45,167 nucleotides of DNA from Coriobacteriia bacterium. Its GTDB lineage: Bacteria; Actinomycetota; Coriobacteriia; Anaerosomatales; SLCP01. Positions 23,831 to 44,795 of the stretch are shown here, piece after piece. Positions within the stretch are counted from its first letter, which is position 1. Every line of letters starts with the position of its first letter. The notes beneath the pieces were generated by a model. That model did no database searches and was not told the origin of the DNA. It was given only the letters and a program-made list of their open reading frames with translations. The position numbers and the translations under genes were made by a program. The stretch is from assembly GCA_034005175.1 (NCBI GenBank), contig JAVEVF010000001.1:1-45167 (forward strand), given 5' to 3'.

Positions 23831-24787
23831 TTATAGCGAGTAGTCCTCCGCGCCCTCGAAGACCCGGAGTGCGTCCTCGGCGCTGTAGTCGCTCAGAGTG
23901 ATGGCGCTGATGGCTTTCGTCAAGCGCACGGCCTCGTCAAGCGACCTCTGGTGGATGTTGCGCCCAGTCGCGTTGCCCACAGCGCCGCCGACATGGATCT
24001 GCTCCCAGAGCTGTGTGAGGAAGGTCTTCGCGTCAACGGTCGATCCACCGGCGCACACCAGGCCGGTGCGGCCCGAAGCGAGCGAGGCCTGCTCCAGCAG
24101 CTCTGCTGAGGATGCCTGCTCGCTGCCCTTGGGTGGATTCACCTTGACGAAGTCCGCGCCGAGCGCGACCGCGACACCGGCGGCGCCGGCGATGAGGTGA
24201 GCGTCCTTCTCGTTGGCGACGGCTTTGCCCCGCGGGTACATCCACAACACGACAAGCAGGCCAAGAGCGTGGGCGTCCGCGATGAGCTGCCCCGCTTCCA
24301 TCATCATCTGGGACTCGTACTCCGAGCCGATGTAGATGGTGTAGCCGATGCCCACGACGTTCACGCCGTTGTCGCGCAGATCGGCTACGGTCTGGATGTC
24401 GTAGAGCTGTGGCGAGTAGGGATCGTCCTGGTGCTTGGCGGGGTCTTGGCTCGTCTTCACGAGATGGGATTTGCTGTTCATCTTCACCAGGTAGTTGACG
24501 TTCGGGTAGTCCGCCGCGTACTGGGCAACAAGGCCCCGCTGGCCGGCCAGGACACCAACGACACCCTGCGTGCCAATGCGGAAGAGGTGCTCGGGCTCGG
24601 CGTCCTCGATAGCGATGCCCTCGCCGTAGAAGTCATCGTTGAGATGTTCCACCTTCTGGTCGCATGCGAACAGCATAAGGCGACCTGTGCCACGAGTTGC
24701 TTTGAGGTAGTTGTCGACGTAGAGCTCACGCGCCTCAGCAGGAACATCAGCGGGCACACGGACCTGATCACGGGTGATGCTAGGCAT
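23831..24787 (-). CDS. class I (DhnA/FbaB-type) fructose-bisphosphate aldolase family protein
   Basis: DeoC/LacD-type TIM-barrel pattern with GADFVKVNPP (Schiff-base Lys context). CAGGAGGGG lies before the ATG. The family is assigned from memory. Confidence 0.6.
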   Translation of the reverse strand: MPSITRDQVRVPADVPAEARELYVDNYLKATRGTGRLMLFACDQKVEHLNDDFYGEGIAIEDAEPEHLFRIGTQGVVGVLAGQRGLVAQYAADYPNVNYLVKMNSKSHLVKTSQDPAKHQDDPYSPQLYDIQTVADLRDNGVNVVGIGYTIYIGSEYESQMMMEAGQLIADAHALGLLVVLWMYPRGKAVANEKDAHLIAGAAGVAVALGADFVKVNPPKGSEQASSAELLEQASLASGRTGLVCAGGSTVDAKTFLTQLWEQIHVGGAVGNATGRNIHQRSLDEAVRLTKAISAITLSDYSAEDALRVFEGAEDYSL

Positions 24788-24924: not shown

Positions 24925-25398
24925 CTATGACGCGATGGCCTGAAGTCGTCGCTCTTCCAGTCTCCGCTCGAATTCAGTCGGAGACAAGTCGCCGATCGAT
25001 GAATGGCGCCGGTAGGTGTTGTAGAAGCCCTCGATATAGCGGAAGAGCGCGAACCTCGCCGCGTCCCTCGTTCTGAAGGTGTGACGGTGCACGCACTCCT
25101 TCTTGATGGTCGCCATCACCGACTCGGTGACCGCATCGTCTCCCGGAGCGCCGACGCTGCCCATCGAGGCCAGGATCCCCGACTCCCGAAGCGTCCTGCC
25201 AAACGCCATGGATCGGTATTGAGCGCCGCGATCCGAGTGATGTATCAGTCCGGCAGCAGGCCTGCGCAGTATGGTCGCCATCGAGAGCGCGTCGACGACG
25301 ATGTCTGCCTTGAGGTCGTCTCGCATCGACCAGCCCACGATCTTCTTCGTGGCTGCCTCGGTGTTGTAGTCGACCGAGACACCGCCTGTCCCCCACAT
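24925..25398 (-). mobile_element. IS3-family transposase (OrfB/rve) C-terminal fragment with no N-terminal half and no OrfA
   Basis: KKIVGWSM...LIHHSDRGAQYRS...SMGSVGAPGDDAVTESVMATIKKE...YIEGFYNTYRRHSSIGDLSPTEFE carries the DDE/rve core signatures. The upstream boundary is approximate. Confidence 0.75.
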
Positions 25399-25789
25399 GC
25401 CGCCCGTTATCGACTTGAGCTGGTCGCCATCGTCATAGGTATACTCAGTGGTCCAGCTGCCTGGCCCGATCTTGAGGGTCGAGGCGACGGGCAGGTTCTT
25501 TGCGCCGTCCCATGTGAGCGCCCGTGAGACGTCGACCGCTTCAGGCACGAGAGCGAAGTGTGCCGTGCTCGTAGTGCTTCGAGTCCTCGGTGCGTTTCTC
25601 GACGATCTCGCGCTCGACGGGGGAAGGCTCGCGCTCGACGGGGGGAGCCGAGGCGGATGTCTCGACCGGGAGGTCCAGGGGCGGGGCGGCGAGAGCCGCA
25701 GGGGCTCCTTCGAGGAGCGGTGAGGTCAGAAGGACGAGAGACAGCACGCAGGAGACAGCGCGACCCAGATGCTCGCGGACCCGTTTCAC
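25399..25789 (-). pseudogene. frameshifted N-terminal remnant of a secreted YD-repeat (RHS/WapA-like) protein, fused to the IS3 fragment
   Basis: GAGAGGAGGG then GTG 25789 opens VKRVREHLGRAVSCVLSLVLLTSPLLEGAPAALAAPP (signal peptide), then ...EIVEKRTEDSKHYEHG and a stop at 25541. The adjacent frame continues ...LTWDGAKNLPV...GSWTTEYTYDDGDQLKSITGG (one YD-repeat unit) and runs directly into the transposase sequence. Confidence 0.45.
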
Positions 25790-28444: not shown

Positions 28445-29689
28445 TCAGTCGCCGGCCAGACCGGCCTCCCTCACGATATCCATGTCCTTGTCGCCTCGTC
28501 CTGAGACATTCACGACCACCACACCATCAGGTCCGAGTTCGGGCGCGAGGCGGGGCAGCAGCGCCAGAGCGTGGCTGCTCTCGATAGCGGGGATGATGCC
28601 CTCGGTGCGGGTCAACAATGCGAACGCCTCGAGCGCCTCGGTGTCGGTGACGGCTTCGTAGCGCACAAGGCCCTCATCCTTCAGATAGCTGTGCTCGGGG
28701 CCTACACCTGGGTAGTCAAGACCTGCCGAGATGGAGTACGCCTCCGCTGGGTTGCCCTCATCGTCCTGCAGCATGTAAGAGTAGAAACCGTGAAGCGTGC
28801 CAGGGGCGCCCTGTGTGAGTGACGCGCCATGCTTGCCGGTCTCGACTCCGAGCCCCGCTGCCTCGGCACCGAATAGACGAGGCCGCTTGTCGGCAGGCAC
28901 CTCACGGAGGAAGGGATAGAACATCCCGATAGCGTTGCTGCCCCCGCCGATGCATGCGATGACCGCGTCGGGCAGGCGCTCCCCGTGACCTTGAAGCTGT
29001 AAGAGGGTCTCCTCACCGATGACCTTCTGAAACTCCCGCACGAGCGCTGGGTAGGGATGGGGCCCCACAGCGCTTCCCAGGACGTAGAAGGTGTCATCAA
29101 CGCGGTCCACCCAGTGGTTCAACGCTGCCGTCACGGCATCAGCGAGCGTTCCGGTCCCCTCGGCGACAGAGACGACCTCGGCACCGAGCAACCGCATCTT
29201 GTAGACGTTCAGCGACTGGCGGCGGATATCCTCAGTGCCCATGAAGACCGCGCACTCAAGCCCCATGAGCGCTGCGGCGGTAGCGGTGGCGACGCCGTGC
29301 TGCCCCGCTCCGGTCTCGGCGATGACGCGCTGCTTTCCCATCCGGCGTGCGAGCAGACACTGCCCGATGGTGTTGTTGATCTTGTGAGCACCTGTGTGGT
29401 TGAGGTCCTCACGCTTCAGGTACACACCGCCGAGGCCCACGGCCTCAGCGAGCCGGTCGGCTCGATACAGCGGCGACGGACGGCCCACGTAGTCGCGCAG
29501 AAGCGCGCCGAACTCCTCGTGAAACGCGGGGTCGGCAAGCGCGGCGTGGAAGGCCTCCTCGAGCTCGGTTAGCGCTGGTTCCACCGTCTCGGGGACGAAC
29601 GTGCCCCCGTAGGGCCCGAAGAAGCCCCTGGCGTCGGGGCTTGAGTATGCCATCTCAACGGAGGGCATGAAGACGTCGCTCACACTCAC
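28445..29689 (-). CDS. trpB: tryptophan synthase beta chain (canonical TrpB1 type)
   Basis: [14 protein letters not shown] (PLP lysine), GAGQHG and [11 protein letters not shown] start after GAGGAGG. Confidence 0.95.
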
Positions 29690-29792: not shown

Positions 29793-31139
29793 TTATGCGC
29801 CTTCGCACATCGAACCAGCGGCGAAATCATAATCCTCCAGCTGACCGGTGTTGTACGCTTCATACGCCGAGAGGTCGAAGTGACCGTGACCGGATAAGCC
29901 GAACAGGATGGTGCGGTCCTCACCGGCTTCCTGTGCGGCAAGCGCCTCGTCGATCGCGGCACGGATTGCATGGCTGCTTTCTGGTGCCGGCAGGATGCCT
30001 TCTGTGCGCGCAAACGTCACGGCCGCGTCGAAACATGCGTTCTGATGCACCGCGACGGCTTCGATCTCGCCTTCCTTGCGCAGCAGCGAGACCAGTGGCG
30101 AATCGCCGTGATAGCGCAGACCACCTGCATGGATGCCCGCAGGCACGAAGTCGTGCCCGAGCGTGTACATCAGCATCTTCGGCGTCATGCCGGCCTCGTC
30201 GCCAAGGTCGTAGCGGTAGTCGCCGGCGGTTAGCGTCGGGCAGGCCTTGGGCTCCACCGCAAGCAACCGCGCCTTGGTGTGCCCGTCGAGTCGACGCTTG
30301 TAGTACGGGAAGGTCAGACCAGCGAAGTTCGAGCCGCCACCGATACACGCGACGACGACGTCCGGCTCGGCCTGTGCCATCTCCATCTGAACGATGGCTT
30401 CCTCCCCGATGATGGTCTGGTGCAGACAGACGTGATTGAGCACGCTTCCCAGACAGTAGTGGGTGTCCTCGCGCATGGCAGCATCCTCGACAGCTTCTGA
30501 GATGGCGATGCCGAGGCTGCCAAGCGAGTCCGGGTCGAGATCGAGCACGTGACGTCCGGCATTTGTGCGGGTGGATGGCGACGAGATGACCTCGGCACCA
30601 TAGGTCTCCATGAGGATGCGCCGGTAGGGCTTCTGGTCATAGGAGATGCCCACCATGTACACGACACACTCCATACCGTACAGCGCACATGCGATAGAAA
30701 GCGCACTCCCCCACTGCCCCGCGCCGGTCTCGGTGGAGATGCGCTTGATGCCCTCCTGCTTGTTGTAGAAGGCCTGTGGGATGGCGGTGTTGGGCTTGTG
30801 GCTGCCAGCCGGAGACACGCCTTCGTACTTGTAGAAGATCTTCACGCCCTCGGGCAGGCCGAGATGCTTTTCGAGCTGACGGGCGCGGTTGAGCGGTGAG
30901 GGGCGATACGTCCGGTAGACGGCAAGGACCTCCTCGGGAATCTCGATGTAGCGCTCCATCGAGACCTCTTGTTTGATGAGCTCCATCGCAAAGAGGGGGG
31001 CGAGGTCTTCTGGGCCGACGGGTTGATCAGTGGCGGGATGCAGCGACGGGGCAAGCGGTGTGGGCAGATCGGGGTTGATGTTGTACCACTTCGTCGGCAT
31101 CTGTCTTTCATCGAGCACGTAGCGTGTCCTGTCTGCCAT
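29793..31139 (-). CDS. TrpB2-type tryptophan synthase beta-like PLP enzyme
   Basis: [26 protein letters not shown]... is a typical TrpB2 N-terminus. Also SHKPNTA (PLP Lys), GAGQWG and GGGSNFAG. The start is set at ATG 31139 after GAAGGAGGAG. The track start at 31310 would run into the T-box terminator. Confidence 0.9.
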
Positions 31140-31290
31140 GTCGCTCTCCTCCTTCACTCCTACGTCCTGCTTCTCCGATGTGCTCGGATCTCGTGCCCAT
31201 GCGTGGCCCTGTCGCGCTTGCCCGACATGCAGGCTGCACGCGAACGCAGACATGACGCACATCCCTTCTGAGAGGGAGTGAGGAGCCCAG

Positions 31291-31328
31291 AAATACAAAT
31301 AACCCCTCATCCCTCAAGGGACGAGAGG
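31291..31328 (-). terminator. intrinsic terminator of the T-box leader
   Basis: RNA CCUCUCGUCCC-UUGA-GGGAUGAGGGG forms 11 bp including G-U pairs, followed by UUAUUUGUAUUU. The 5' arm can alternatively pair within the antiterminator that contains the T-box sequence. Confidence 0.8.
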
Positions 31329-31620
31329 TCATCTCGCGGTACCACCCTTGTTGCTCACCTCTTACGAGGTAAGCCACTTGTCCTGACGGTACGTGGACTG
31401 GACTGCGCCGCTGTAATCAATCGTGCGGCGCTGCAATCCGAATACCCGGCCCCTTGTATCGGTGGGGATCCGCCGGGACTAATGGGCGCTTTGCACCGTT
31501 GTCCTCGGTACCTCAGGGGTCCATTCCCTCCGGTCGCTCACGTCGGTTTCCACCAGCCACCGACTCTCTCCGCTTCGCGTCCGGGGTACTCCTCCCCCTC
31601 ATGGGCTCATATCCGATTGT
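31291..31620 (-). promoter_or_regulatory. T-box riboswitch leader, tryptophan specifier (UGG)
   Basis: On the minus-strand RNA, in the canonical order: AGAGAG bulge (31569-31564), distal loop GGCUGGUGGAAA (31558-31547), specifier loop GAA-UGG-A (UGG at 31523-31521), T-box sequence AACAAGGGUGGUACCGCGAG (31352-31333), then the terminator. A candidate promoter lies upstream: TTGCGG (31657-31652), an 18 nt spacer, TACACT (31633-31628). Confidence 0.85.
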
Positions 31621-31719: not shown

Positions 31720-32460
31720 CTAGGGGACAGCGGGCTTGCCTCGCACCTTCTCACGCATGACCAGGCCGATGAAGCGCGCGTTTCCAACGAGATACCGGCG
31801 CCACATCCGTCTCGGCTCTTGTGCGAATCGGTAGAACCACTCAAGTCCTGAGCGCTGCATCCACGCAGGTGCTCTCCGGGTGACTCCCGCTATCACATCG
31901 AAGCTGCCCCCGACGCCCATGGCGAACACAGGACCCATATCGCGAAGATGCTCGGCGAGGAAGTACTCCTTCTTGGGGCTTGAGATGCCGACGAACACCA
32001 GCTTTGCGTGGGAGTCCTTGATTGTGCGTGCGACCTGCCAGCCGTCGTCGAAGTAGCCGTTTTGCTGCCCGGCCACCACGAGCCTGGGATGCTGTGCGGT
32101 CAATCGGGTGACACACGACTCCAGCACCTCATCCCGCGCACCGAGGAAATACACCGGCCACCCGCGCTGCTCGGCCTCGGCGAGCAACCGTGCCATGAGG
32201 TCGATGCCTGCGACTCGCTCTGGGACATCAAGGCCGAGCACCCTCCCGGCCCACACGATCGACTGCCCGTCGGCGCTTACGATGTCGCAGCCGGAAACCA
32301 CGCTGTGCAATCTGCGGTCGTCGTGCATCATGATTACCTTGCCCGCGTTAAGGACCACGTGCTGAGCGGCTTGTTGTCGCTCGGCCAGCTCGACGCATGC
32401 ATCGACCGTCTCATCCATCGTGAGCAGGTCGAGCGGCACTCCGAATATCTCACCTCTCAT
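31720..32460 (-). CDS. WecB/TagA/CpsF-family (GT26) glycosyltransferase
   Basis: IFGVPLDLLTMDETVDACVE...VVLNAGKVIMMHDD...DIVSADGQSIVWA...FLGAR...VGISSPKKE. The start is probably ATG 32460; the track start is 32481. Confidence 0.85.
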   Translation of the reverse strand: MRGEIFGVPLDLLTMDETVDACVELAERQQAAQHVVLNAGKVIMMHDDRRLHSVVSGCDIVSADGQSIVWAGRVLGLDVPERVAGIDLMARLLAEAEQRGWPVYFLGARDEVLESCVTRLTAQHPRLVVAGQQNGYFDDGWQVARTIKDSHAKLVFVGISSPKKEYFLAEHLRDMGPVFAMGVGGSFDVIAGVTRRAPAWMQRSGLEWFYRFAQEPRRMWRRYLVGNARFIGLVMREKVRGKPAVP

Positions 32461-33640
32461 AGCGAACCACTCCCGCAGCACGAGCGACAGCTTCTTCCAG
32501 AGGGTCTCGACGTCCTGCGTTCAGCAGCCCGAGGGAGGCTTCGCCGAGCGCCCAATGAGCGTCACCCCACCGCACGAAGTGCCGTTTGTCCGTCCAAGAG
32601 CGGTGTTTCTGGTAGTACGTGACGCCTGATTGCCCCTCGACAAGGTGCTTCTTGGTCCATGAGGCCACGCGCCGAGCCACATCGCCGGTGTCAAACCCCC
32701 AGCTCGCCAGTCGTGCCGCTACATCCACCGCGGTGCCCGCGCTGTGAATGTCATAGGGGTAAGGACGTGTCGGGTAGTACTTCGGCTCACCCTCGGGTCC
32801 GAAGAAATCGTGCACCCAGTGCTCGACCCCTCTCCTCAGAGCGTCGTGCACTGCTTCATCGCCGCTTGCCAGCCATACCTGAAGCAGCCCGTCGAGGTTG
32901 TACGCGGTATGGAAGTTGTCCGCCCAACCGAGCGATGCTCCTTCCCCATACGGCCATGACCCGTCGTCACGCTGCGCATGCATGCTTGTCTGCGCGCACT
33001 GAAGCCCCGTACTCACTCGGCCGGTATCCGATGCCAATGCCCCCGCCATGGCGACGAGCCCAGCGCCAAGGAAGTTGGCGTTGTGTATCAGGCGATCGCT
33101 CGTGAGCGTATACATGAACCGTGGTGTGGGAGCGCAGGTTAGCATGCGCTCTTGCAGGAAGTCGGCCGCCGCACTCATTCGCTCGAGATGCTGCGCATCA
33201 CGTGCCACAGCCGCAGCGCTGCCGAATCCCCGCCCGACGAACACGGTCGCGATAAGATTGGGAGAACCGGACGGGTAGAACGCCCAGCGCGTCTGGACAT
33301 CGAACTCGTAGCCCCACCCGCCACCGTCCATGCGCGCGATAGTCTCGTCCGCGCCAAGCTGCTCGGCCAGCAAGCGAACCTCCTCCGAGCCCCCAGTCTC
33401 ACTCGCATACCTGCTTGTTGCTGTGAGATATGCCCCCAGCGTCTTGGCCATCATGAACGCTTCCACACCAAGCACGCCAGAGAGGTCGATAGGACTTCGC
33501 TTCCGAGCCTGAATAACAGCCTGACGCATACGCGGGTGAGAGCGCACGAACGCCGGCACGCGACTACCTCGCAGCGCATCATATGGGTCTCGGCCCGAAT
33601 AGACCCCCACCTGCCGCTCGCCCCCTCGACCCATCGTCAC
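32450..33640 (-). CDS. conserved hypothetical protein of polysaccharide clusters (possibly alpha/alpha-toroid fold)
   Basis: Globular 396 aa protein with Trp-rich motifs (DGSWPYGEGASLGWADNFHTAYNLDGLLQVW). I recall similar proteins in EPS loci but cannot name a family with confidence. Confidence 0.55.
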   Translation of the reverse strand: MTMGRGGERQVGVYSGRDPYDALRGSRVPAFVRSHPRMRQAVIQARKRSPIDLSGVLGVEAFMMAKTLGAYLTATSRYASETGGSEEVRLLAEQLGADETIARMDGGGWGYEFDVQTRWAFYPSGSPNLIATVFVGRGFGSAAAVARDAQHLERMSAAADFLQERMLTCAPTPRFMYTLTSDRLIHNANFLGAGLVAMAGALASDTGRVSTGLQCAQTSMHAQRDDGSWPYGEGASLGWADNFHTAYNLDGLLQVWLASGDEAVHDALRRGVEHWVHDFFGPEGEPKYYPTRPYPYDIHSAGTAVDVAARLASWGFDTGDVARRVASWTKKHLVEGQSGVTYYQKHRSWTDKRHFVRWGDAHWALGEASLGLLNAGRRDPLEEAVARAAGVVRYER

Positions 33641-35410: not shown

Positions 35411-37708
35411 ATGGTGAATCAGCCCTCTATGCAAACCAAACCCGAGGAGACGACTACCTCGCGACGCGGAGCGATGGAGCTGTTCGTCGGATCGGCAGGT
35501 CGTCTCCTCGTCAGCGGATTGGGCGCCATCGTTATCGCGGCTCTTGTCGGCCCATCCCACAAAGGAACCCTTGCCACGCTGGCAGCAGTCTCATGGATGG
35601 TCTCGGTCATTCTCGGCATGGGTATGGACGGAACCGTGCGCTACTATTTGGCCACCCGAGACTGGACGGTACAGCAGACGAACACGGTGATTGTCGGGGC
35701 GACGTCCCTGACGGCGCTGATCGCCTTCGCCGGATTCAAGGCCTTTGCAATCCTCATGCCGAATAGCATCCTCGCGGATCTCACCACCACTCAGCTCACC
35801 ATAGCCACCGCTACGAGCCTCCTTGGCCGTCTCACTGGACCGGCCCTGGTCGCGATACGCAGGTTCAGCTTCTACGCGAAGTTGGCTCTCGTGGCGGCAT
35901 TTGTGAACCCCGCTGCATTCCTCCTGCTCAGACTCGCTGGAGTAAGCCCCCTCCAGTCCGCCTTGTGGGGTTATCTCAGTGCCGATATCGCCCTTGCCCT
36001 CCCAGGGGCTTTTCGCCTCCTCGCAATCGCAGGGTGGCGGTTCAGCCGTCCGACTGACCTGCGTGGCGCCGTATGGTACAGCCTGCGCTCCTTTGGAACG
36101 AACCTGTTCAGCATGGCGAATCTACGCCTGGATGTGGTGCTGTTGCGCTCGCTTTCCACCACCGCCGCCACGGGTGCGTACTCGTTAGCAGCGCAGTTCT
36201 CCGAGGTCGTGTGGCTGGTGCCAAGCTCCGTAGGCGTGGCCTCGTTTCCTGAGATTGCTGAGAAAGGTCACGACGACGGCCAGTGGACCGCGCGCAACTC
36301 ACGCCTCGTGACTGCGCTCAGTACGCTCGCTGCCATCCTGGCGGGGGCAGCTGCGTCTGTGCTCATCGTGTTCTTCATGCCCGCGTATCGCAGCGGTCTG
36401 TCCGCATTGTGGCTCTTGATGCCCGGCACGATCGCAGTCTCCATATCGCAGATCCTGTTGCACGACCTCAACGCGCGAGGGCTTCCTGAGGCAAACACCC
36501 TCGGCGCTGCAGCGGCCCTCGTCGTCACGATCGCAGGAGGGCTCCTCCTCATCCCACCATTTGGACTGGTAGGCGCCGCGATCGTCTCGAGCATTGCCTA
36601 CAGCGTGAATGCGAGTGTCCTCGCAGCATACTTCGTAAAGACCACCTCTTGCCCGGTCAGACTCCTCCTGCCCGGATTCAAGGATCTGTGGGGGGCATTT
36701 GCGCTTGCGCTAAGGGTGGTGCGCGAATTCATGGGGAGCAAGTCTTCCGAAACGACACCAAGTGCGCCCTCGGATGCTGCACGATCTTGCAGGATGACAC
36801 CTTCATCGATGCGGCGGCGGCAGTTTGCATTCCTTCGCTGGTCGGGACTCCCCCTGCTCATGCGCGAGATCGTCCAACGCCGGCGCGTGACGATCATCAA
36901 CTACCACGAGGTCGGCCCTCAGCTGCTCGACCGGCATCTTTCAATCCTGGGCGCACGATACAACTTCATCACACTCGAAGAGTACGTAGCAGCCATGCAT
37001 GACAGCACACCTAGATCGCTGCCCCCGAAATCACTTGTCATCACCATCGATGACGGCCACAAGTCCGTGACCGGACTTGCTGATGTCTTTCGCAAACATG
37101 GTGTTCGACCCACGGTGTTCTTGTGCAGTGGTCTGATCGATACCACCCGCCGGTTCTGGTGGACGATGGTACCCGACTACAGCGAGGTTGAGCGACTCAA
37201 GGACCTGTCCAACGCCGAACGACTCGAGGCCCTCACATCATGGGGCTTCTCTGAGACCCAAGAGTACGCGGAGCGCACGTCAATCAACTGTGAAGAGATC
37301 GCGTCCACACGAGACGTGTTCGACTTCCAGGCACACTCAGTCTTTCATCCCATGCTGACGACGTGTGCTGATGAGTGCTGCCAGCGGGAGATCTACGAAT
37401 CCAAGACCGATCTTCAGCAGCTTTGCGATCTTGACGTCTGGGCATTCGCGTATCCCGGGGGCTCGTACGCTGACCGTGAGGCCGACTACGTGCGGAATGC
37501 AGGGTATGCGTGTGCTGTGACATGCGATGCTGGATTCAACGATCTCGACACCGATCCCTTTCGTCTCAGGCGGGTAGGAATGGGCGCTTGGGAAGGTGCC
37601 TGCGCGGAGACGGAGCACGACCATCTCTTAATCGACAAGAATGAGATCATTGCACGCGCATCAGGGGTCCCTGCCCTGCTCGCGCAGATGGTGTCAGAGC
37701 GCCAGTGA
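35411..37708 (+). CDS. fusion protein: Wzx-type oligosaccharide flippase (MOP superfamily, about 440 aa) plus NodB-type polysaccharide deacetylase (about 300 aa)
   Basis: The N-terminal half is polytopic with about 12 hydrophobic helices of Polysacc_synt type. The C-terminal half has VITIDDGHKSV (the TFDDG-type motif), HSVFHP and YPGGSY, typical of polysaccharide deacetylases. It is a single uninterrupted ORF. Confidence 0.8.
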   Translation: MVNQPSMQTKPEETTTSRRGAMELFVGSAGRLLVSGLGAIVIAALVGPSHKGTLATLAAVSWMVSVILGMGMDGTVRYYLATRDWTVQQTNTVIVGATSLTALIAFAGFKAFAILMPNSILADLTTTQLTIATATSLLGRLTGPALVAIRRFSFYAKLALVAAFVNPAAFLLLRLAGVSPLQSALWGYLSADIALALPGAFRLLAIAGWRFSRPTDLRGAVWYSLRSFGTNLFSMANLRLDVVLLRSLSTTAATGAYSLAAQFSEVVWLVPSSVGVASFPEIAEKGHDDGQWTARNSRLVTALSTLAAILAGAAASVLIVFFMPAYRSGLSALWLLMPGTIAVSISQILLHDLNARGLPEANTLGAAAALVVTIAGGLLLIPPFGLVGAAIVSSIAYSVNASVLAAYFVKTTSCPVRLLLPGFKDLWGAFALALRVVREFMGSKSSETTPSAPSDAARSCRMTPSSMRRRQFAFLRWSGLPLLMREIVQRRRVTIINYHEVGPQLLDRHLSILGARYNFITLEEYVAAMHDSTPRSLPPKSLVITIDDGHKSVTGLADVFRKHGVRPTVFLCSGLIDTTRRFWWTMVPDYSEVERLKDLSNAERLEALTSWGFSETQEYAERTSINCEEIASTRDVFDFQAHSVFHPMLTTCADECCQREIYESKTDLQQLCDLDVWAFAYPGGSYADREADYVRNAGYACAVTCDAGFNDLDTDPFRLRRVGMGAWEGACAETEHDHLLIDKNEIIARASGVPALLAQMVSERQ

Positions 37709-37733: not shown

Positions 37734-38399
37734 CTAATCGCGCTCCTCGGCAATGTGAGAGAAGATGCGACTGTCCTCCTGCGCCGTCTCGGTGAGCGGA
37801 CGCATGTTCTCGTCGATCAGCCGCTCTCCTTCGAACCTGAATGTAGTGAGGGTGAGGTTAGGCAACCTGTGCGCCATCGCCTCACGCCATGTCTCACCGC
37901 GCAAGAACCCATGCAGCTGCAGCAGGAACACCTCATGTGATGCAACCAGCACCCGACGTCCACGGTGCTCGCTCCAGAGGTACTGCATGAACTCCTCGGC
38001 GCGCTTTCTCAGGGCGGGAAAGGTCTCCCCTCCAGGCGGGTTCAGCGAGTGGAAGTCCCCCGCTATCTTGAAGTAGCGGATGACGGGTCGCACATCTTCG
38101 ACCTCGTCAGAAGTGAGACCTTGCATCGCACCGTAATCGCGCTCGACACACAGATCACAAGGAACGATCCGCCCCGCGGGGCCTACGAGCAACCGTGCGG
38201 TATCCAAAGCGCGCCTGAGCGGTGAACTCACCGTGACATCGATGGCCTCGTGCAGGCTGTGCGCCGCATCGAGCGCGTCTTGCGCTCCCTTCTCGTTCAA
38301 GGGCACATCAATCGACCCCGCGTAGCGGCGTTGCATGTTGAAGTCGGTCTGCCCGTGCCTGACCGTCATCACCACGGTCTCGCTATCCACGGCCCACAC
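37734..38399 (-). CDS. histidine phosphatase superfamily protein (cofactor-dependent phosphoglycerate-mutase-like)
   Basis: VMTVRHGQTDFN (RHG motif), SSPLRRA, ERDYGAMQG and ASHEV. The start is uncertain: GTG 38399 overlaps the upstream gene by 17 nt, and ATG 38369 is an alternative. Confidence 0.85.
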   Translation of the reverse strand: MWAVDSETVVMTVRHGQTDFNMQRRYAGSIDVPLNEKGAQDALDAAHSLHEAIDVTVSSPLRRALDTARLLVGPAGRIVPCDLCVERDYGAMQGLTSDEVEDVRPVIRYFKIAGDFHSLNPPGGETFPALRKRAEEFMQYLWSEHRGRRVLVASHEVFLLQLHGFLRGETWREAMAHRLPNLTLTTFRFEGERLIDENMRPLTETAQEDSRIFSHIAEERD

Positions 38400-39606
38400 C
38401 CGCGAGGCGCAGGAGGTGGTTCAACCGCATGATGGACGAGTAATCGCTGAGCAGCGGCCCAATCTTAATGTACGGAACGCTGTACTCGCATGTCGCGTCG
38501 CAGACGTACGTCGACTCGGTGCTGATCGACCGGTGTGAGGTGATGGGAAGCAACCCACCAGCCTGTGCCGCCTCTATGGCCGCACGGGTCGCAGAGACGC
38601 TGCCCGCTTGGTTCGGCTTGATGAGCACAGCAGTGCTGTGCCCTTCTCTTGCGCCTCGCTCTATGCGAGCTGATTCCGAGACATACAGGTTGTCACCGAT
38701 GGTGATGCATCTGCCATTGCAGCGCTTGGTAATCTCCACCCAGCCCTCGAGATCCTCCTCGTGAAACGGGTCTTCAAGAAAGCCGAGCGAGTACTCCTCG
38801 ATGACCTCAAGCCAGTACGTCACAGACTCTTCTGTGGTGCGTTGAGTGCCATCAGTGATGGCGAACACGTAGCCCTCAGAGGTTCGCAGGTCGGTCGCCG
38901 AAGCATCAATCATGAGGTCATAGTCCTTGCGCAAGCCCAGCTCCTCAAGCACCTCTGCAAGAAACGCGAGGGGCGCGTGCGCAGTCCTCGGGCCGACGAT
39001 GCTCACCGGATTGCCATTCACCACGCTCTTCTCGCACATGAGCAAGCGTTGCTTGACGAGCTCTTGCACTTGCCCATGCTCCGCGACGGTCTTCATGAGA
39101 TCATCACTCTTGGGGACAATGATGAACTCCTGAAAGTCGCTCAGCACAGGATTCGTGTATGCGTGTGAGCCGCCGTTCAATACATTCATGCACAGCCGTG
39201 GGAGCTTGCAGCCCTCGGGCATCTTCAAGAGTCCGGCTTCGCGCCAAGCATCGAAATAGGCGGCTGAGAGCGCAAAACACGTGTTCTTGCCAAAATGACC
39301 GGCGCGTTTGGCAATGAGCTTATCGAAACCGGCCTGCGTGGCGACATCCGCAAGCTCGCCATCGGCACGCATCGAGTCCACCACCACACGGGGATCCACC
39401 GGTAAACCGTGGTCCTCATGGATGCCGATCGTCTCCCCTCGCGAGGTCGAACCGATGCCGCAAGCTCCGTCTTGCAGTTCGATGATGAACTCGACTGTTC
39501 GCCCCATGTGCGAATCGAAGATCGTGCGGTATCCGATCGAGTGGACTCCTGTTCCCTGCATAGCCCCGCCTCTGTGTCCGCCTTCTGCAGTGTGCGACAG
39601 TGTCAC
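38383..39606 (-). CDS. divergent enolase-family paralogue
   Basis: By-eye alignment to enolase: IGYRTIFDSHMGRTVEFIIEL (compare IIDSRGNPTVE), MNVLNGGSHA, QEFIIVP, IDASATD, LEDPFHEED, IGDNLYVS, LIKPNQAGS, TSHRSISTES and YIKIGP. The start may be ATG 39561 (MQGTGVHSIGY) rather than GTG 39606. Confidence 0.8.
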   Translation of the reverse strand: MTLSHTAEGGHRGGAMQGTGVHSIGYRTIFDSHMGRTVEFIIELQDGACGIGSTSRGETIGIHEDHGLPVDPRVVVDSMRADGELADVATQAGFDKLIAKRAGHFGKNTCFALSAAYFDAWREAGLLKMPEGCKLPRLCMNVLNGGSHAYTNPVLSDFQEFIIVPKSDDLMKTVAEHGQVQELVKQRLLMCEKSVVNGNPVSIVGPRTAHAPLAFLAEVLEELGLRKDYDLMIDASATDLRTSEGYVFAITDGTQRTTEESVTYWLEVIEEYSLGFLEDPFHEEDLEGWVEITKRCNGRCITIGDNLYVSESARIERGAREGHSTAVLIKPNQAGSVSATRAAIEAAQAGGLLPITSHRSISTESTYVCDATCEYSVPYIKIGPLLSDYSSIMRLNHLLRLAGVGRG

Positions 39607-39700
39607 TCCCTGATTCTCGGTTCGTACCCAAGAATCACCACATTATCTTGACGGTGCCGCTTGCGAGAGAACCCCGTCTGCGAGCTCTGAGCCCATCAAG

Positions 39701-41038
39701 CTAGTCCGAGGATTCAGGCGGGTCCGAGTTGATCACGTAGCGCAGTGCCTTGCCCGAAGACGAGCGCTCCACCTGATCGGTGATGCTGAGAGTGAAATCA
39801 AAAGCATTCTGCCACTTGTCATGCTGTGACTTGAGGAACCGAGCCCCCAGAGTATCGTCATACTCCGCTCTCGGTACGACACGAAACTCCAGGCTGCCCG
39901 CTTTGTCCTGAACGATTTGCACGCCGTGGACGTAATCGAGCAGGAGCTCAAGATCGATACAGATGCCTGGCACCTTCGTTCCCATGTGTGTTGTGAGGTA
40001 CTCCTGTTCTCGGCCCTCGATGCTTTGAAGAACGCCATCTGTGATCTCGCCGAAATCTTGCGTGCGATACCGAATGAGCGGCATGACCTCGTTCCAGTAC
40101 GAGGTCCCCACGATCTCCTGTCCGCCCCAGGCGTGGGCTCGGTTCTCAGAGTGCCCATAGACAGGCTCGAGCACATACGAGATCCCCTCACCGCTCCAGC
40201 GGCCCCATGCGAGACTGCTGCGCTCGCTAAGCCCGTAGTGGAAGATGACGGGAACACCCGCGAATGCTTCCTCGGCCAGACGCAGTTGGCGCTCGGTAAC
40301 CTCCTCGGATGCCAGCAGTATGGCTTTCACGCTGGGAAGGGCGAAGCCGGACCTTCTCATGTAATCGGCAAGGTACTCGAATCCGCTCGGATATGAATGG
40401 ATGAACTCGGGAGCGAACTTTTGGAACTCGTCGCAGATGTGGACCACCCAGCGTTCGTTGAGATGGCTGGGTGAGACAAGGAGGCGGTTCCCCCACCGTG
40501 AAGATGGCTCGCGATCCAGGGGTTTTGCCCCCTCAAAGCCGATCCGAGCTATCCGTGCGTTTCTTGAATAGCCGGCCTTGCCCCAGCCGTAATGGATGAA
40601 GGCCGCCTCCGCCGATTGGTCGAAACGGCTCCGGTACAGCCTGATCGGACGCCCCGTAGACCCCCCTGTCCGCACTTGATAAAGGCGCCGGGGATTGTGT
40701 GTCTTGGCGACAAAGGCCTCGGGGTCACGCATGATGTCGTTCTTGCTCAGATAAGGAAAGCGCGTCAGTACCTCATGCGCGTTTTGCGCATCGATCTCAC
40801 CGGGCGCGACGTCAAGGTCGAGCTCCCGATAGTATGGTACTTGAGTGAGTGCGACACGAAGCACGCTCGCCAAGCGACTACCGAGAGCAAGTGAGATGTC
40901 CTCGCCGCTCTCGGCCCTCTTCAGCATCTCTTGCACCTCGAAGTAGGGTCGAGAATAGGCAAGCCGCGCTGGCAGATGGTTCATGGCCTCCAGCGCCGCC
41001 AAACGCACCCTTGGATCCTGTTTGATCTTGCTGAGCAT
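39701..41038 (-). CDS. CapK/PaaK-like adenylate-forming enzyme (phenylacetate-CoA ligase / F390 synthetase family)
   Basis: VPYYRELDLD...FPYLSKNDI...VRTGGSTGRPIRLY (the T/SGSTGxP adenylation loop). The length fits the family. The start is taken at ATG 41038; the track start is 41077. Confidence 0.75.
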   Translation of the reverse strand: MLSKIKQDPRVRLAALEAMNHLPARLAYSRPYFEVQEMLKRAESGEDISLALGSRLASVLRVALTQVPYYRELDLDVAPGEIDAQNAHEVLTRFPYLSKNDIMRDPEAFVAKTHNPRRLYQVRTGGSTGRPIRLYRSRFDQSAEAAFIHYGWGKAGYSRNARIARIGFEGAKPLDREPSSRWGNRLLVSPSHLNERWVVHICDEFQKFAPEFIHSYPSGFEYLADYMRRSGFALPSVKAILLASEEVTERQLRLAEEAFAGVPVIFHYGLSERSSLAWGRWSGEGISYVLEPVYGHSENRAHAWGGQEIVGTSYWNEVMPLIRYRTQDFGEITDGVLQSIEGREQEYLTTHMGTKVPGICIDLELLLDYVHGVQIVQDKAGSLEFRVVPRAEYDDTLGARFLKSQHDKWQNAFDFTLSITDQVERSSSGKALRYVINSDPPESSD

Positions 41039-41261
41039 CTGTCCTGCCCTTGTATCTTGTGTCCGATCGCACTGCACTTATGAGGCGGGCGATATCTGCC
41101 CCTCTACAACCTCATCGGAATACATAGCGCATCGCTTCAGTAAAAAGTGCTGGTTGCAGGGGAGAGCCTCTTGTCCACGCGTGTTCATGGGCTACTATTG
41201 GCACATCCGCATCACACAGTGCTTGGCGCCGACCGTCTCCACCCTAGACCTGCGCCAAGTC

Positions 41262-42461
41262 ATGAAACCAATGGAGCTGAGTACCTCGACTACGCCCCGT
41301 CCACAGTGGAGGATTGTCCCATATCCTGGCCTTGAGGGTCTGCAGCAGCTTCGGGAAGACTGGCAGCGGCTCACAGAACAGCTCCCCTTCCAGTCGGCGT
41401 TTCACTCGTACGCAGCCATGGAGGCGTACCTTCGCCACCTGTGCCCCAGCCCTGAGACATTCACGTGTTTTGCGCTGACAGACGGTCAGGCGATTCGCGC
41501 TATCTGTCCACTGGAACGGTCCACGCAGCGCCTCTTCGGTGCCCGTGTCACCGTGTGGAAGTTCTCTCGGCATGCCCACTGGTCGATCGCCGATGCCATC
41601 TGCCCGCAAGGCGAGGTGCGTCAATGCCTTGTGCGGCACCTGGTCAACCATCTCCGTGCGACAGAAGGGACCGCGTCGTTGCTTGAAATCGGCCCTGTTG
41701 CAGACTACTCGGCGCTCCTCGATGGACTGACTGCTCTTGGGGCACATGAGTACTGCACAGACGTCATGTGGCAATCAAGTGTCATCGACTGCCGTCAGCC
41801 ATTTGCCGAGATCGAGGCCTCGCTCACGAAGACAGCCCGGCAGAGCAGGCGCCGGGCGCACAAGCGGCTCGCAAAGCTTGACGATGTTGCCTGGGTACGG
41901 GCGAGCTCTGGAGCCGCCCTGGATGCCGAGTTCGAGTCGTTTCTCTCCGTGGAAGCATCGGGTTGGAAGGGCCCGCAGGGTACGGGAACCGCTGTCGCGT
42001 GCCATCCCGAGCTTGTCGCTTACTACCGGGATCTCATACACGCAATGGCAGAAACCGGCGATTGCGACATCTTCTCGCTGTATGCTGAGGGACGGTGCAT
42101 CGCCTCTCAGATTGACGTCAAAGGGCGGGAGGAATGCGTTGCGCTCAAGGCCGGGTATGACGAATCCTACTCGGTCGTCACGCCTGGCAAACTCGTTGAC
42201 GAGGCAATGATCGAGCACTGTTGCGGCGACGCTTCTTCCGGACGGATCAACTTCCTCACAGAAATCGAATGGCTTCGAGGATGGAACGCGACCACGGTCC
42301 CTGTTACGCAGACGCATGTGTCTATCACGCGTGTACGTGGAAGACTACTCGTCGCGCTCTTCCACCTTCAGCGACTCGTGCGTGCCGCAGCTCTACGATA
42401 CCGAGAGCGCACAGCAAGAAGAGACCAGGCGCGCGGGCGTAAGCCCGCGGGGAAGAACTGA
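41262..42461 (+). CDS. CelD/BcsL-like GNAT (Acetyltransf_6, FemAB-like fold) transferase
   Basis: LQQLREDWQRL...FQSAFHSYAAMEAY... and C-terminal FESFLSVEASGWKGPQGTG...FSLYAEGRCIASQIDV...ALKAGYDESYSVVTPGKL. The start at ATG 41262 is tentative because there is no clear RBS. The track start at 40983 overlaps the divergent gene. Confidence 0.65.
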   Translation: MKPMELSTSTTPRPQWRIVPYPGLEGLQQLREDWQRLTEQLPFQSAFHSYAAMEAYLRHLCPSPETFTCFALTDGQAIRAICPLERSTQRLFGARVTVWKFSRHAHWSIADAICPQGEVRQCLVRHLVNHLRATEGTASLLEIGPVADYSALLDGLTALGAHEYCTDVMWQSSVIDCRQPFAEIEASLTKTARQSRRRAHKRLAKLDDVAWVRASSGAALDAEFESFLSVEASGWKGPQGTGTAVACHPELVAYYRDLIHAMAETGDCDIFSLYAEGRCIASQIDVKGREECVALKAGYDESYSVVTPGKLVDEAMIEHCCGDASSGRINFLTEIEWLRGWNATTVPVTQTHVSITRVRGRLLVALFHLQRLVRAAALRYRERTARRDQARGRKPAGKN

Positions 42462-42468
42462 CATCACC

Positions 42469-43638
42469 TCAGAGGCGCTTGAGGCTCGCAAGCCCCGACG
42501 TGCGCTCCATCTTCTCAATCACTGCATCAGGCGCATATCGCCTGATGCGCGAGACCAGGAGCCGACGGACTGCGTCTCTTCCAGATGCGAGACGCCCAGC
42601 AAATGAGCGACCATAGCACGTCACCTCATGCATCTGCGCGATATTCTTCGTGAAGCGCTGCTTATACGCAGACACACCCACCCCGAGGTTGAATGCCGAA
42701 CACCCTTCATCTATCGCATTTTCGAAAGCGTAGCCGAACATCACATTTCCCACGTGATGCGGGGCCCAGGATTCGTCGTAAGCGGTCTTGTACCCGATCA
42801 TCTTGTCACGGTGTCGAGCCTGCCAGATAAAGGCTATGCGTTGCCCGTCGACGGTGAGAAAACTGAATCTGAGTTGTCCGCGTGCAAGAAACGCCTCGCT
42901 CGCTGAGCGCAGCATAGACGCGTAACGCGCAGACACCTCATATGGGTGGCTGTATCGCGTGCTCATCCCTCGTTCGAACATTCGCAGCGCATCTGCAAGC
43001 GCAACCGGTAGGTCCTCACACCGCAAGATATGCTCTACCCCAACAGCACCTGCGGATTCGAGCTCTCTGCGCCATCGCCTGATTCGACTGCGCTCCCGAC
43101 TCGACATCTGTTGCAGAAACTGCTCCCACGTCGGCGATAGCACGACCTCGGGACATGCGACGGATTCTCCGACGGTAAAGCGGCCACACAAGCCACATGA
43201 TCCCAGTTCGGCAAGGATGCTGAGGAAGGGGCTGTCTTCGTGCATCCTACGAAATGCGAACACATCCCATTCCCGCCGACTCGACATCAACCACGTGCGC
43301 AGCGCTTCAAGCGCCTCAGCTTCATGTGCGGGGTCCACCAGACAATCGAGCTGCGTGGCTCCCAGCGCGTCACCCATGAAGCCAAGATGTCGTGGACGCA
43401 AAAGACTTCCCTTGCCGTGCACATACGCAGGTAAGATGCCGACGAGCGCCCCAGTCTGAGCATCGCGGACGCACGCAATCTGCATGCGGTCGGCTTCGCC
43501 GGCGTAGCCTTTCCACCATGCTTCTAGCCACTCGTGCACCAGAAAGACGCTGGACATGCGGCTGCACTCGACAAGCCGGTTCCACTCGTCCTTGAGCCCC
43601 AGAAAACCCTCAAGCGTATCTATCAGATGTACGCGCAT
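42469..43638 (-). CDS. second CelD/BcsL-like GNAT (Acetyltransf_6, FemAB-like fold) transferase
   Basis: MRVHLIDTLEGFLGLKDEWNRLVECSRMSSVFLVHEWLEAWWKGY is a typical N-terminus for this family. The C-terminus has FSFLTVDGQRIAFIWQARHRDKMIGYKTAYDESWAPHHVGNV. Confidence 0.7.
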   Translation of the reverse strand: MRVHLIDTLEGFLGLKDEWNRLVECSRMSSVFLVHEWLEAWWKGYAGEADRMQIACVRDAQTGALVGILPAYVHGKGSLLRPRHLGFMGDALGATQLDCLVDPAHEAEALEALRTWLMSSRREWDVFAFRRMHEDSPFLSILAELGSCGLCGRFTVGESVACPEVVLSPTWEQFLQQMSSRERSRIRRWRRELESAGAVGVEHILRCEDLPVALADALRMFERGMSTRYSHPYEVSARYASMLRSASEAFLARGQLRFSFLTVDGQRIAFIWQARHRDKMIGYKTAYDESWAPHHVGNVMFGYAFENAIDEGCSAFNLGVGVSAYKQRFTKNIAQMHEVTCYGRSFAGRLASGRDAVRRLLVSRIRRYAPDAVIEKMERTSGLASLKRL

Positions 43639-43721
43639 GCAGCGATTATACTCACAGACAAGGCAACCTGTTTCCGGCCGTGCCGCGAAACTCGCGCGCC
43701 GACAAGGACGGAGTGCTATCT

Positions 43722-44795
43722 GTGAAATCGAACCGTGTTGTGCATATCGGGCCATCTGTATCGGCTCGTGGCGGTATCGCCCGAGTCATACGCGGCTTGC
43801 TTGACTCCCCGCTCGCCGAGGAATACGAGCTGACCTCGGTCAGCACCGTCTCCCAGCACACAGGGAGCGTTCGCTTGATGGCGTTTCCCCTTGCTATCGC
43901 CCGGCTTACGTGGATGTTCATCATCTCCAAGCCGGCCGCCGTCCACGTGCACACTGCATCATGGGGAAGCTTCCCCCGCAAGAGGCTCGTGGTGGGACTT
44001 GCACATCTCTTTGGCGTGCCGGTGATCTTGCACATACATGGAGGTGCTTTCGCCCGGTACCTGCAACAACGCTCCTCTCGCGAGCAGGCGGTGCGGCGCA
44101 CGCTCCAGCGGTGTTGTGTGGTGATCGCACTCTCTGAGCAGCTCAAAGAGCGCCTCCTAGCCCTCGTTCCGGATGCAGATATCCGCGTGATCCCCAATTC
44201 AGTGGATATCCCCGTGTCACCCGCCCACAACACCAGCAGCGCGCACATGATCTTCGTCGGTCGGCCAGTGTCTGAGAAGGGCATATATGAGCTTCTCGAT
44301 GCCATGAGCGGCATCGTTGAGCAGTACCCCGCTGCCACCCTCGAGATCGCTGGCAATGATGAAGGTGGGGGCCTGGCGTCAAGACTGCGGGACCTGGCAC
44401 TGGAAGGAAACGTGCGGATGTGCGGCTGGCTCGGCAGCGCGGCACTTCATGAGGCATACAGTAGGAGCTCGATATTCGTCCTACCGTCACACATCGAAGC
44501 CATGCCGGTGTCTTTGCTGGAGGCCATGTCTTACGGATTGGCATGCGTGGCGACACCAGTGGGCGCGGTTCCTGACATCATCACCGATGGTGACAACGGC
44601 ATCATCATACCTGTCAACGACTCGCGTGCACTCACAGCGGCACTCAAGACCCTGCTCGCCGATGAGCAACTGCGTTTCGACCTCGGTGAGCATGCGCGAG
44701 CAACGATTATCGCGCACTATTCGCTAGCACGCACTGCTGACCTTATCGGCGGGGTTTACGCTGTTTGTGGCGTCAAGAAAGGTCGCGCCGGGTGA
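43722..44795 (+). CDS. GT4-family (Glycos_transf_1) glycosyltransferase
   Basis: VVHIGPSVSARGGIARV at the N-terminus. The C-terminus has FVGRPVSEKG...FVLPSHIEAMPVSLLEAMSYGLACVATPVGAVPDII (the EX7E region). The start is tentatively GTG 43722 after GGAG. Confidence 0.85.
   Translation: MKSNRVVHIGPSVSARGGIARVIRGLLDSPLAEEYELTSVSTVSQHTGSVRLMAFPLAIARLTWMFIISKPAAVHVHTASWGSFPRKRLVVGLAHLFGVPVILHIHGGAFARYLQQRSSREQAVRRTLQRCCVVIALSEQLKERLLALVPDADIRVIPNSVDIPVSPAHNTSSAHMIFVGRPVSEKGIYELLDAMSGIVEQYPAATLEIAGNDEGGGLASRLRDLALEGNVRMCGWLGSAALHEAYSRSSIFVLPSHIEAMPVSLLEAMSYGLACVATPVGAVPDIITDGDNGIIIPVNDSRALTAALKTLLADEQLRFDLGEHARATIIAHYSLARTADLIGGVYAVCGVKKGRAG

Follow-up and report, generated by a model that had tools for sequence, protein, structure and literature searches.

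Located within a surface-glycan locus on a 45,167-bp contig of a Coriobacteriia metagenome-assembled genome (MAG), referred to in its full length as the window, are three co-directional and nearly contiguous minus-strand genes. A previous reading of the sequence alone had assigned them to a CapK/PaaK-type enzyme, an enolase-superfamily paralogue and a histidine phosphatase, and both the arrangement and these domain assignments were confirmed:

37734..38399, minus strand: histidine phosphatase of branch 1, short PhoE/CobC/PspA type (PF00300 His_Phos_1, E 3.9e-35)
38383..39561, minus strand: paralogue of the enolase subgroup with a remodelled active site (PF00113 Enolase_C, E 2.3e-32; 392 aa)
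39701..41038, minus strand: CapK/PaaK-type adenylate-forming ligase (PaaK structures, E 1e-7; 445 aa annotated)

The open frame of the enolase-like gene reaches 39606, with the ATG at 39561 as the likely start; the resulting 392-aa form is identical to a database protein (P0001). The enolase equivalog model TIGR01060, whose cut-off is 300 bits, gives the protein 154 bits, and Enolase_N hardly detects the N-terminal domain (16.8 bits against a cut-off of 35). An AlphaFold2 model to which 68 family members contributed (predicted local distance difference test 92.3, predicted template modelling score 0.92) displays a two-domain enolase fold, composed of an N-terminal capping domain and a TIM-like barrel. 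The top 50 matches of this model in the PDB, as found with Foldseek, are all glycolytic enolases (TM-score 0.79–0.87, 22–27% identity).

For comparison of the active sites, 72 family members from 72 loci were aligned with E. coli enolase, the numbering of which is used here. In addition to the predicted two-domain fold, the family shares with the glycolytic enzymes (E. coli Eno; M. tuberculosis Eno, 7e4f and 7cll) a set of residues that is invariant in all 72 members: H159, E168, D246, E290, D291, D317, K342, H370, R371, S372 and K393. These include the three Mg2+ ligands D246, E290 and D317, the catalytic base Lys342 and the phosphate binders H370-R371-S372. The carboxylate binders are likewise intact, and a hydroxyl residue occupies the second-metal position of the lid loop as in glycolytic enolase. 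In contrast to these enzymes, the general acid Glu209 (Glu211 in yeast, part of the GDEGG motif) is replaced by Asn in 67 members and by His in the remaining five, whereas Glu or Asp is found in none. In line with this, a phmmer alignment to the E204A mutant of M. tuberculosis enolase (7e4f) places no acidic residue opposite the catalytic Glu204. Further departures are an invariant Glu (71 of 71 members) at position 41, an Ala in E. coli, directly preceding the second-metal Ser/Thr (here Thr) of the lid loop, an Asn in place of D318 in 69 of the 72 members, and a three-residue insertion after GGxHA. The retained residues, together with the replaced general acid, suggest a site that is intact where a 2-phospho-carboxylate is bound and its C2 proton abstracted, but rebuilt where the C3 substituent is handled. 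Since the general acid is missing throughout the family, plain turnover between 2-phosphoglycerate (2-PG) and phosphoenolpyruvate (PEP) is probably not its reaction.

Members from Coriobacteriia, Chloroflexota, Planctomycetota, Aminicenantes, Acidobacteriota and Methanomassiliicoccales are 45–50% identical to each other, whereas only 22–30% identity is found to canonical enolases, a pattern across distant lineages that does not look like that of a housekeeping gene. In NCBI annotation the members are named 'hypothetical protein' or 'enolase C-terminal domain-like protein'. By fold and metal site the protein belongs to the enolase subgroup, within which it represents a distinct family and not a glycolytic enolase equivalog; with about half of the TIGR01060 cut-off score and no catalytic acid in any member, the earlier description of a diverged, dedicated paralogue was borne out.

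The stop codon of the enolase-like gene (TAG, 38383–38385) overlaps the start of the phosphatase gene, and the two genes are predicted to be translationally coupled. The phosphatase scores 121.7 bits with PF00300 (cut-off 21.7). Its best solved relatives are PhoE (E 2.5e-17), PspA and GpgP (E 9e-11), with 2,3-BPG-dependent phosphoglycerate mutase (dPGM) following at about 1e-9. All equivalog cut-offs of NCBIfam are missed, the best dPGM model yielding 51 bits against cut-offs of 82–421, and a length of 208–221 aa (family median 208) compared to about 250 aa for dPGM likewise places the protein outside the dPGM group. As expected for branch 1, R14 and H15 of the RHG motif, R63 and E86 are conserved to at least 95% in 72 phosphatase sequences, and a SHEVF motif supplies the second His in the window protein. 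The family thus resembles PhoE, PspA, CobC and GpgP in length (about 208 aa) and in the RHG, Arg and Glu catalytic residues, but differs from them in its low equivalog scores, in invariant residues of its own (H117, E125 and R133, the same 72 sequences) and in the coupling to the enolase-like gene. Consequently the label 'dPGM-like' had to be given up in favour of the short PhoE, PspA, CobC and GpgP phosphatases, to which the protein is closer. With a phosphatase instead of a mutase, and with the general acid missing in the enolase-like partner, two consecutive glycolytic steps are not the logic of the module.

In order to define the conserved unit, 78 loci were examined, nine from an exact protein look-up (window contig included) and 69 from a search through a single representative genome for each species, with gene content derived from all open reading frames (ORFs) by homology-weighted selection. 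Two loci are cut by contig ends, leaving 76 informative ones, which are designated by L numbers where needed. In 75 of these 76 loci the enolase-like gene is followed immediately by a His_Phos_1 gene, typically with a gap of −22 to +8 nt. The carriers belong to more than 12 phyla and two archaeal orders, among them Actinomycetota, Chloroflexota, Acidobacteriota, Bacteroidota, Planctomycetota, Bacillota, Patescibacteria, Methanomassiliicoccales and Methanoregula. At the same time the distribution is sporadic and crosses domains: a pattern scan found the family in 69 of 185,579 species representatives, and tblastn against 72,556 plasmids returned only canonical enolases (about 29–30% identity) and no member of the family. 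The conserved unit is therefore the pair of enolase-like gene and phosphatase gene and not a triad with a ligase. No description of the enolase-like family or of the two-gene cassette was found in the literature; the cassette is uncharacterised, occurs widely and carries a diagnostic signature in its active site. Two ORFs that seemed to fuse enolase and phosphatase (L073:8975-11752 and L074:3216-4817) were discarded as frameshift artefacts, in which the C-terminal enolase motifs fall into another reading frame and the extension of the ORF upstream is spurious.

The third gene of the window, the ligase, has an open frame that extends to 41077, with the annotated start at 41038. The match to PaaK structures covers the adenylation core (residues 62–345). 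Moreover, the protein scores 69 bits with NF045666 and 20 bits with AMP-binding, the latter below the cut-off, and PF27533 CapK_C is precomputed on homologues with 39–53% identity. The protein is 100% identical to a database entry, and the source annotation reads 'phenylacetate--CoA ligase family'; with the PaaK equivalog TIGR02155, however, only 25.7 bits are obtained against a cut-off of 646. Ligase gene and enolase-like gene are separated by 94–139 nt, and a pattern scan of the minus strand from 37.5 to 41.4 kb detected no terminator-like sites. At the other end, the open frames of the ligase and of the divergently oriented PF13480 gene overlap at their 5' ends by up to 95 nt (40983-41077); at least one of the two start codons must therefore lie further in, and the shared control region is very short.

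An ATP-dependent carboxylate ligase was recognised beside the pair in 48 of the 76 loci, usually at position +2 or −1. The partners comprise RimK-like ATP-grasp (12 loci), TupA-like ATP-grasp (12 loci), CapK/PaaK-like (11 loci), AsnB-like (nine loci) and Ddl-like ATP-grasp enzymes (two loci) as well as one ATPgrasp_ST protein. These kinds are unrelated or only distantly related, so that the partner is interchangeable. Even the pair-linked CapK-like genes belong to different subfamilies, which indicates that the ligase has been recruited repeatedly: the window protein is 42–45% identical to CapK-like proteins from pair-less loci, e.g. of Clostridium carnis, but only 21–30% to the pair-linked copies of Bacteroidales, L010 and L077. 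The triad proposed by the sequence-only reading does recur, namely in Actinomycetota (L010, L062), Methanomassiliicoccales (L002, L013, L048), Bacteroidales (L047, L052, L056, L063) and Dehalogenimonas (L077), but as one of several forms in which the pair is found. In Methanomassiliicoccus (L002) the pair and the CapK-like gene are followed by PF13480 genes and Wzx, in a layout much like that of the window.

Linkage of the pair to glycan genes was likewise upheld in part. Among 51 pair loci of at least 15 kb, at least 21 contain two or more clustered glycan genes, a count that is a lower bound; in Bacteroidales, however, the trio lies outside glycan clusters. Occasional neighbours of the pair are GNATs, hexapeptide acyltransferases, a methyltransferase, PGA_cap proteins and AlaDh_PNT proteins; neither the partner ligases nor the AlaDh_PNT and PGA_cap proteins receive a specific name from NCBIfam. 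Only one of the 76 loci has a UDP-sugar 6-dehydrogenase at a distance of up to 10 kb from the pair, and amidation of uronic acids was therefore not adopted as a general role.

Two neighbourhoods deserve separate mention. In five pair loci (L025, L031, L042, L045, L049) a dehydrogenase of the AlaDh_PNT family adjoins TupA or RimK ligases, and a homologue (L079:5693-6652, E 1e-37 to 1e-43) accompanies genes for CapK-like ligase and UDP-sugar dehydrogenase in the pair-less glycan locus of Clostridium carnis; here glycan decoration may draw on a second supply module, independent of the pair. In Patescibacteria (L067:3830-7892, L070:8817-12885) the pair is situated between an M14 zinc carboxypeptidase and a Ddl-like ATP-grasp enzyme, with an ABC-2 exporter upstream and a pyridoxal phosphate (PLP) decarboxylase downstream. 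The arrangement recalls that of VanH, VanA and VanX, which relies on the supply of a D-2-hydroxy acid.

In the window, the glycan locus extends from 31720 to the contig end and is preceded by housekeeping genes; across it the G+C content drops slightly from about 0.63 to about 0.59. Apart from the three genes described above, the following features were assigned:

1–28 kb: housekeeping genes, among others uvrB, coaE, rpsA, polA, glnA, mgtE, accA/D and pfk
28445-29689: second PLP-dependent gene, of the PALP family, following the TrpB-like gene
29793-31310: TrpB-like PLP gene (NF009057, 715 bits) with a T-box leader directly upstream
31720..32481, minus strand: WecG/TagA/CpsF-family glycosyltransferase (PF03808, E 2.4e-60), left edge of the glycan locus
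32450..33640, minus strand: soluble 396-aa protein of unknown function, with neither a Pfam match above cut-off nor a transmembrane segment
33872..35401, plus strand: Wzz chain-length determinant fused to a BY-tyrosine kinase (TIGR01007, 151 bits, above cut-off; Wzz and GNVR domains)
35411..37708, plus strand: Wzx-like flippase domain (about residues 1–480, from hydropathy) fused to a polysaccharide deacetylase domain (residues 537–701; PF01522, E 3.2e-14)
40983..42461, plus strand: FemAB/GNAT-like transferase (PF13480, E 4.8e-19), divergent from the ligase gene
42469..43755, minus strand: second FemAB/GNAT-like transferase (PF13480, E 3.7e-24; weak FemAB_like match)
43680..44795, plus strand: GT4-type glycosyltransferase, clustering with Glyco_transf_4 and Glycos_transf_1 genes of L001 and other loci

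The T-box leader (31314-31611, minus strand; Rfam RF00230, 95.4 bits against a gathering score of 93) and the TrpB-like PLP genes form an operon of their own, and the glycan locus is therefore taken to begin at the WecG/TagA transferase. For the same reason, namely a separate operon sensing an amino acid via tRNA, the TrpB-like PLP genes were ruled out as members of the module. The previous designation of a Wzx/Wzy-type locus is matched by the Wzx-like domain, the Wzz/BY-kinase, the WecG transferase and the GT4 enzyme, whereas no Wzy was found in the window before the contig end. The 765-aa fusion of flippase and deacetylase is an unusual architecture; hydropathy indicates at least nine hydrophobic segments in its flippase part, and the Polysacc_synt genes of L003 and L009 are homologues of this part. 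Both the deacetylase domain and the two FemAB-like proteins are thus present as described, but as conserved partners they drop out, being only occasional neighbours of the pair. For the 396-aa protein a homologue (L013:3840-5018, E 1.4e-16) lies two genes away from the enolase-like/phosphatase/CapK trio of a Methanomassiliicoccales MAG, and the protein may be an extra accessory of the module. Further away, a 207-aa integrase-core (rve) fragment between housekeeping genes (24925-25548, minus strand) is probably the remnant of an insertion sequence. In two Geothrix-related genomes of Holophagaceae (L046:6840-7760 and L054:6801-7751), a DeoC/LacD-family aldolase is encoded two genes upstream of the pair; the presence of a homologue in the window (23831-24787, minus strand), 14 kb from the pair, is probably coincidence.

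Taken together, the retained active-site residues point to a 2-phosphorylated three-carbon (C3) carboxylate, 2-PG or PEP, as substrate, the coupled phosphatase to removal of the phosphate, and the recurrent ligases to entry of the product, or of a phospho-intermediate, into an ATP-dependent condensation. Accordingly worded as a proposal, the enolase-fold enzyme would bind two Mg2+ ions and the 2-phospho-carboxylate, with the Lys removing or returning the C2 proton, and together with the phosphatase it would convert PEP or 2-PG into a dephosphorylated C3 2-hydroxy acid. Glycerate would be the simplest product, with a 3-substituted lactate as alternative. An ATP-dependent ligase would then join the C3 unit to an acceptor; in the window, the CapK/PaaK-type enzyme would adenylate glycerate. 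A likely acceptor would be an amino sugar of the polysaccharide, the amine of which the deacetylase domain of the flippase fusion could expose. The two PF13480 proteins are candidate transferases, the first of them (40983..42461) being the one that likely transfers the activated group. Substrate, product, order of the steps, the carboxylate activated by the ligase and the acceptor are those that we infer from gene content and active-site residues. That a C3 acid is made, activated at its carboxyl group and installed, as suggested before, stays the simplest reading, with the acid itself named by conjecture. A module that turns PEP or 2-PG into a dephosphorylated C3 hydroxy acid for ATP-dependent ligation onto a glycan is put forward tentatively, at slightly less than an even chance.

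Precedents exist for individual parts of this proposal. An enolase recruited into a biosynthetic cluster and acting on a phosphoglycerate analogue is known from phosphinothricin biosynthesis, phpH (PMC4748306). By description, not by sequence, this recruited paralogue is the nearest functional precedent. PhpH, a carboxyphosphonoenolpyruvate synthase, works together with PhpG, a protein of the phosphoglycerate mutase family. In contrast to this system, which makes a phosphonate natural product in Streptomyces, the pair occurs in glycan loci with ligases and is carried by anaerobes and archaea, and neither the window nor the annotated loci showed phosphonate genes such as ppm and ppd. Closest in module logic within a capsule is the amidation of the C. 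jejuni HS:2 polysaccharide by Cj1436/Cj1437, the TupA-like ATP-grasp enzyme Cj1438C and the phosphatase Cj1435 (PMC11800379). There, too, a phosphorylated C3 unit derived from a glycolytic intermediate, a ligase of the TupA type and a dedicated phosphatase serve a surface polysaccharide. In C. jejuni, however, PLP enzymes make the unit, an amine, and an HAD-type phosphatase is used, whereas the pair combines an enolase-fold maker with a histidine phosphatase.

Several observations weigh against the proposed route to a ligated hydroxy acid. 2-PG is already a central metabolite, so that a dedicated enolase is not obviously needed for glycerate, and the lost general acid speaks against plain hydration or dehydration. 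The phosphatase is absent from one locus (L064, Caldisericota). In the four Bacteroidales loci the trio is kept as a unit with differing flanks, which include methylmalonyl-CoA decarboxylase subunits, CotH, a major facilitator superfamily transporter, trehalase and peptidases; here the product may not be a polysaccharide decoration. The ligase of the window may activate something generic, e.g. a uronic acid, instead of the cassette product, as suggested by its greater similarity to CapK-like proteins from pair-less loci than to several pair-linked copies. Finally, an amine as product would agree better with the GNAT genes found near the pair in L004 and L068. Because 2-PG is available anyway and the general acid is missing, three alternatives were kept beside plain glycerate.

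In the first, the enolase-like enzyme attaches to C3 of PEP some group in place of water, with ammonia, amines, sulfite and thiols as candidate nucleophiles, or works in reverse and eliminates such a group; the resulting 3-X-2-phospholactate is then dephosphorylated to 3-X-lactate, e.g. isoserine. The ligase would join this product via its amine to a carboxylate, such as that of a uronic acid, or via its own carboxylate. Replacement of the acid/base that handles the 3-OH in all 72 members, retention of all 2-phospho-carboxylate binders and the new invariant Glu of the lid loop are in keeping with such a reaction. The enolase superfamily already holds an ammonia lyase, methylaspartase. In coenzyme M biosynthesis, moreover, ComA and ComB (phosphosulfolactate synthase and phosphatase) follow the same logic, a nucleophile being added to PEP and the 2-phospho-3-X-lactate then dephosphorylated. 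The likeness is one of logic only, the folds being unrelated and the pathway leading to a cofactor outside any glycan locus, and no homology was detected in the Pfam and NCBIfam scans. An amine product would also suit the GNAT neighbours, the company of CapK-like and AlaDh_PNT genes with a UDP-sugar dehydrogenase in C. carnis, and the finding that TupA-like ATP-grasp enzymes of capsule loci activate a sugar carboxylate and accept a phosphorylated amine (PMC11800379). On the other hand, UDP-sugar 6-dehydrogenase is almost never found near the pair, and the sequence data place no constraint on the nucleophile. Furthermore, we know of no glycan with isoserine or sulfolactate. Addition of a nucleophile other than water is thus considered unlikely, though to be kept in mind.

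The second alternative is a 2-PG racemase or epimerase, which enolises its substrate and reprotonates it, the phosphatase then releasing L-glycerate, an isomer not otherwise made by the cell. This would account for the need of a dedicated enzyme and agrees with an active site in which the C2 base and the enolate-stabilising machinery are intact but the acid for the leaving group is missing. Yeast enolase E211Q mutants behave in a corresponding way, as exchange of the C2 proton is kept while dehydration is lost. No second base was identified on the opposite face, however, and racemisation is given a low probability. Equally low weight is given to the third alternative, in which ligation of the phospho-acid precedes the removal of its phosphate, the phosphatase working at the end on a glycan- or conjugate-bound phospho-intermediate. 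Such an order is published for C. jejuni, where Cj1438C precedes Cj1435 (PMC11800379), and GpgP, a His_Phos_1 enzyme which dephosphorylates glucosyl-3-phosphoglycerate, is among the solved relatives of the phosphatase. The tight coupling of the phosphatase to the enolase-like gene and not to the variable ligase, in contrast, suggests consecutive steps on a small molecule.

Least probable of all are ordinary glycolytic paralogues, enolase and phosphoglycerate mutase, boosting the supply of PEP or 2-PG, or housekeeping copies: biosynthetic clusters often hold precursor-supply paralogues (PMC4748306) and the enolase fold, metal site and base are intact, but the absent catalytic acid, the TIGR01060 score, the short phosphatase below all dPGM cut-offs, the identity pattern between archaea and distant bacteria, the NCBI names and the rarity of the family among species representatives make a role in plain precursor supply or housekeeping unlikely.

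A bolder claim, possible but more doubtful than not, is that the enolase subgroup, commonly credited with a single reaction, includes a second and widespread family whose chemistry on a 2-phospho-C3 acid is new. PEP might be joined to some nucleophile in place of water, or 2-PG might be racemised, and with its dedicated phosphatase the family would supply an unrecognised building block for surface glycans and other conjugates in numerous uncultured bacterial phyla and in archaea related to methanogens. For N-glyceroyl decoration in Tannerella forsythia the genetic basis has been described as still 'elusive' (PMC6120980, PMC5378307). If the reading of the pair as a maker of C3 acids holds, the cassette would provide testable candidates for C3-acid glycan decorations such as N-glyceroyl, a link to Tannerella itself not being established here. 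Cultured carriers of the pair are Geothrix rubra, Geothrix limicola and Aggregatilinea lenta, the last with the two genes at 256058-257862 of BFCB01000002.1 in assembly GCA_003569045.1; Dehalogenimonas CP139473.1 is a further carrier genome. On the same condition, the enolase subgroup would comprise a second family, recognisable by the residue signature Glu209Asn, Ala41Glu and Asp318Asn, and the pair would constitute a portable two-gene cassette, which many lineages have attached to different ATP-dependent ligases.

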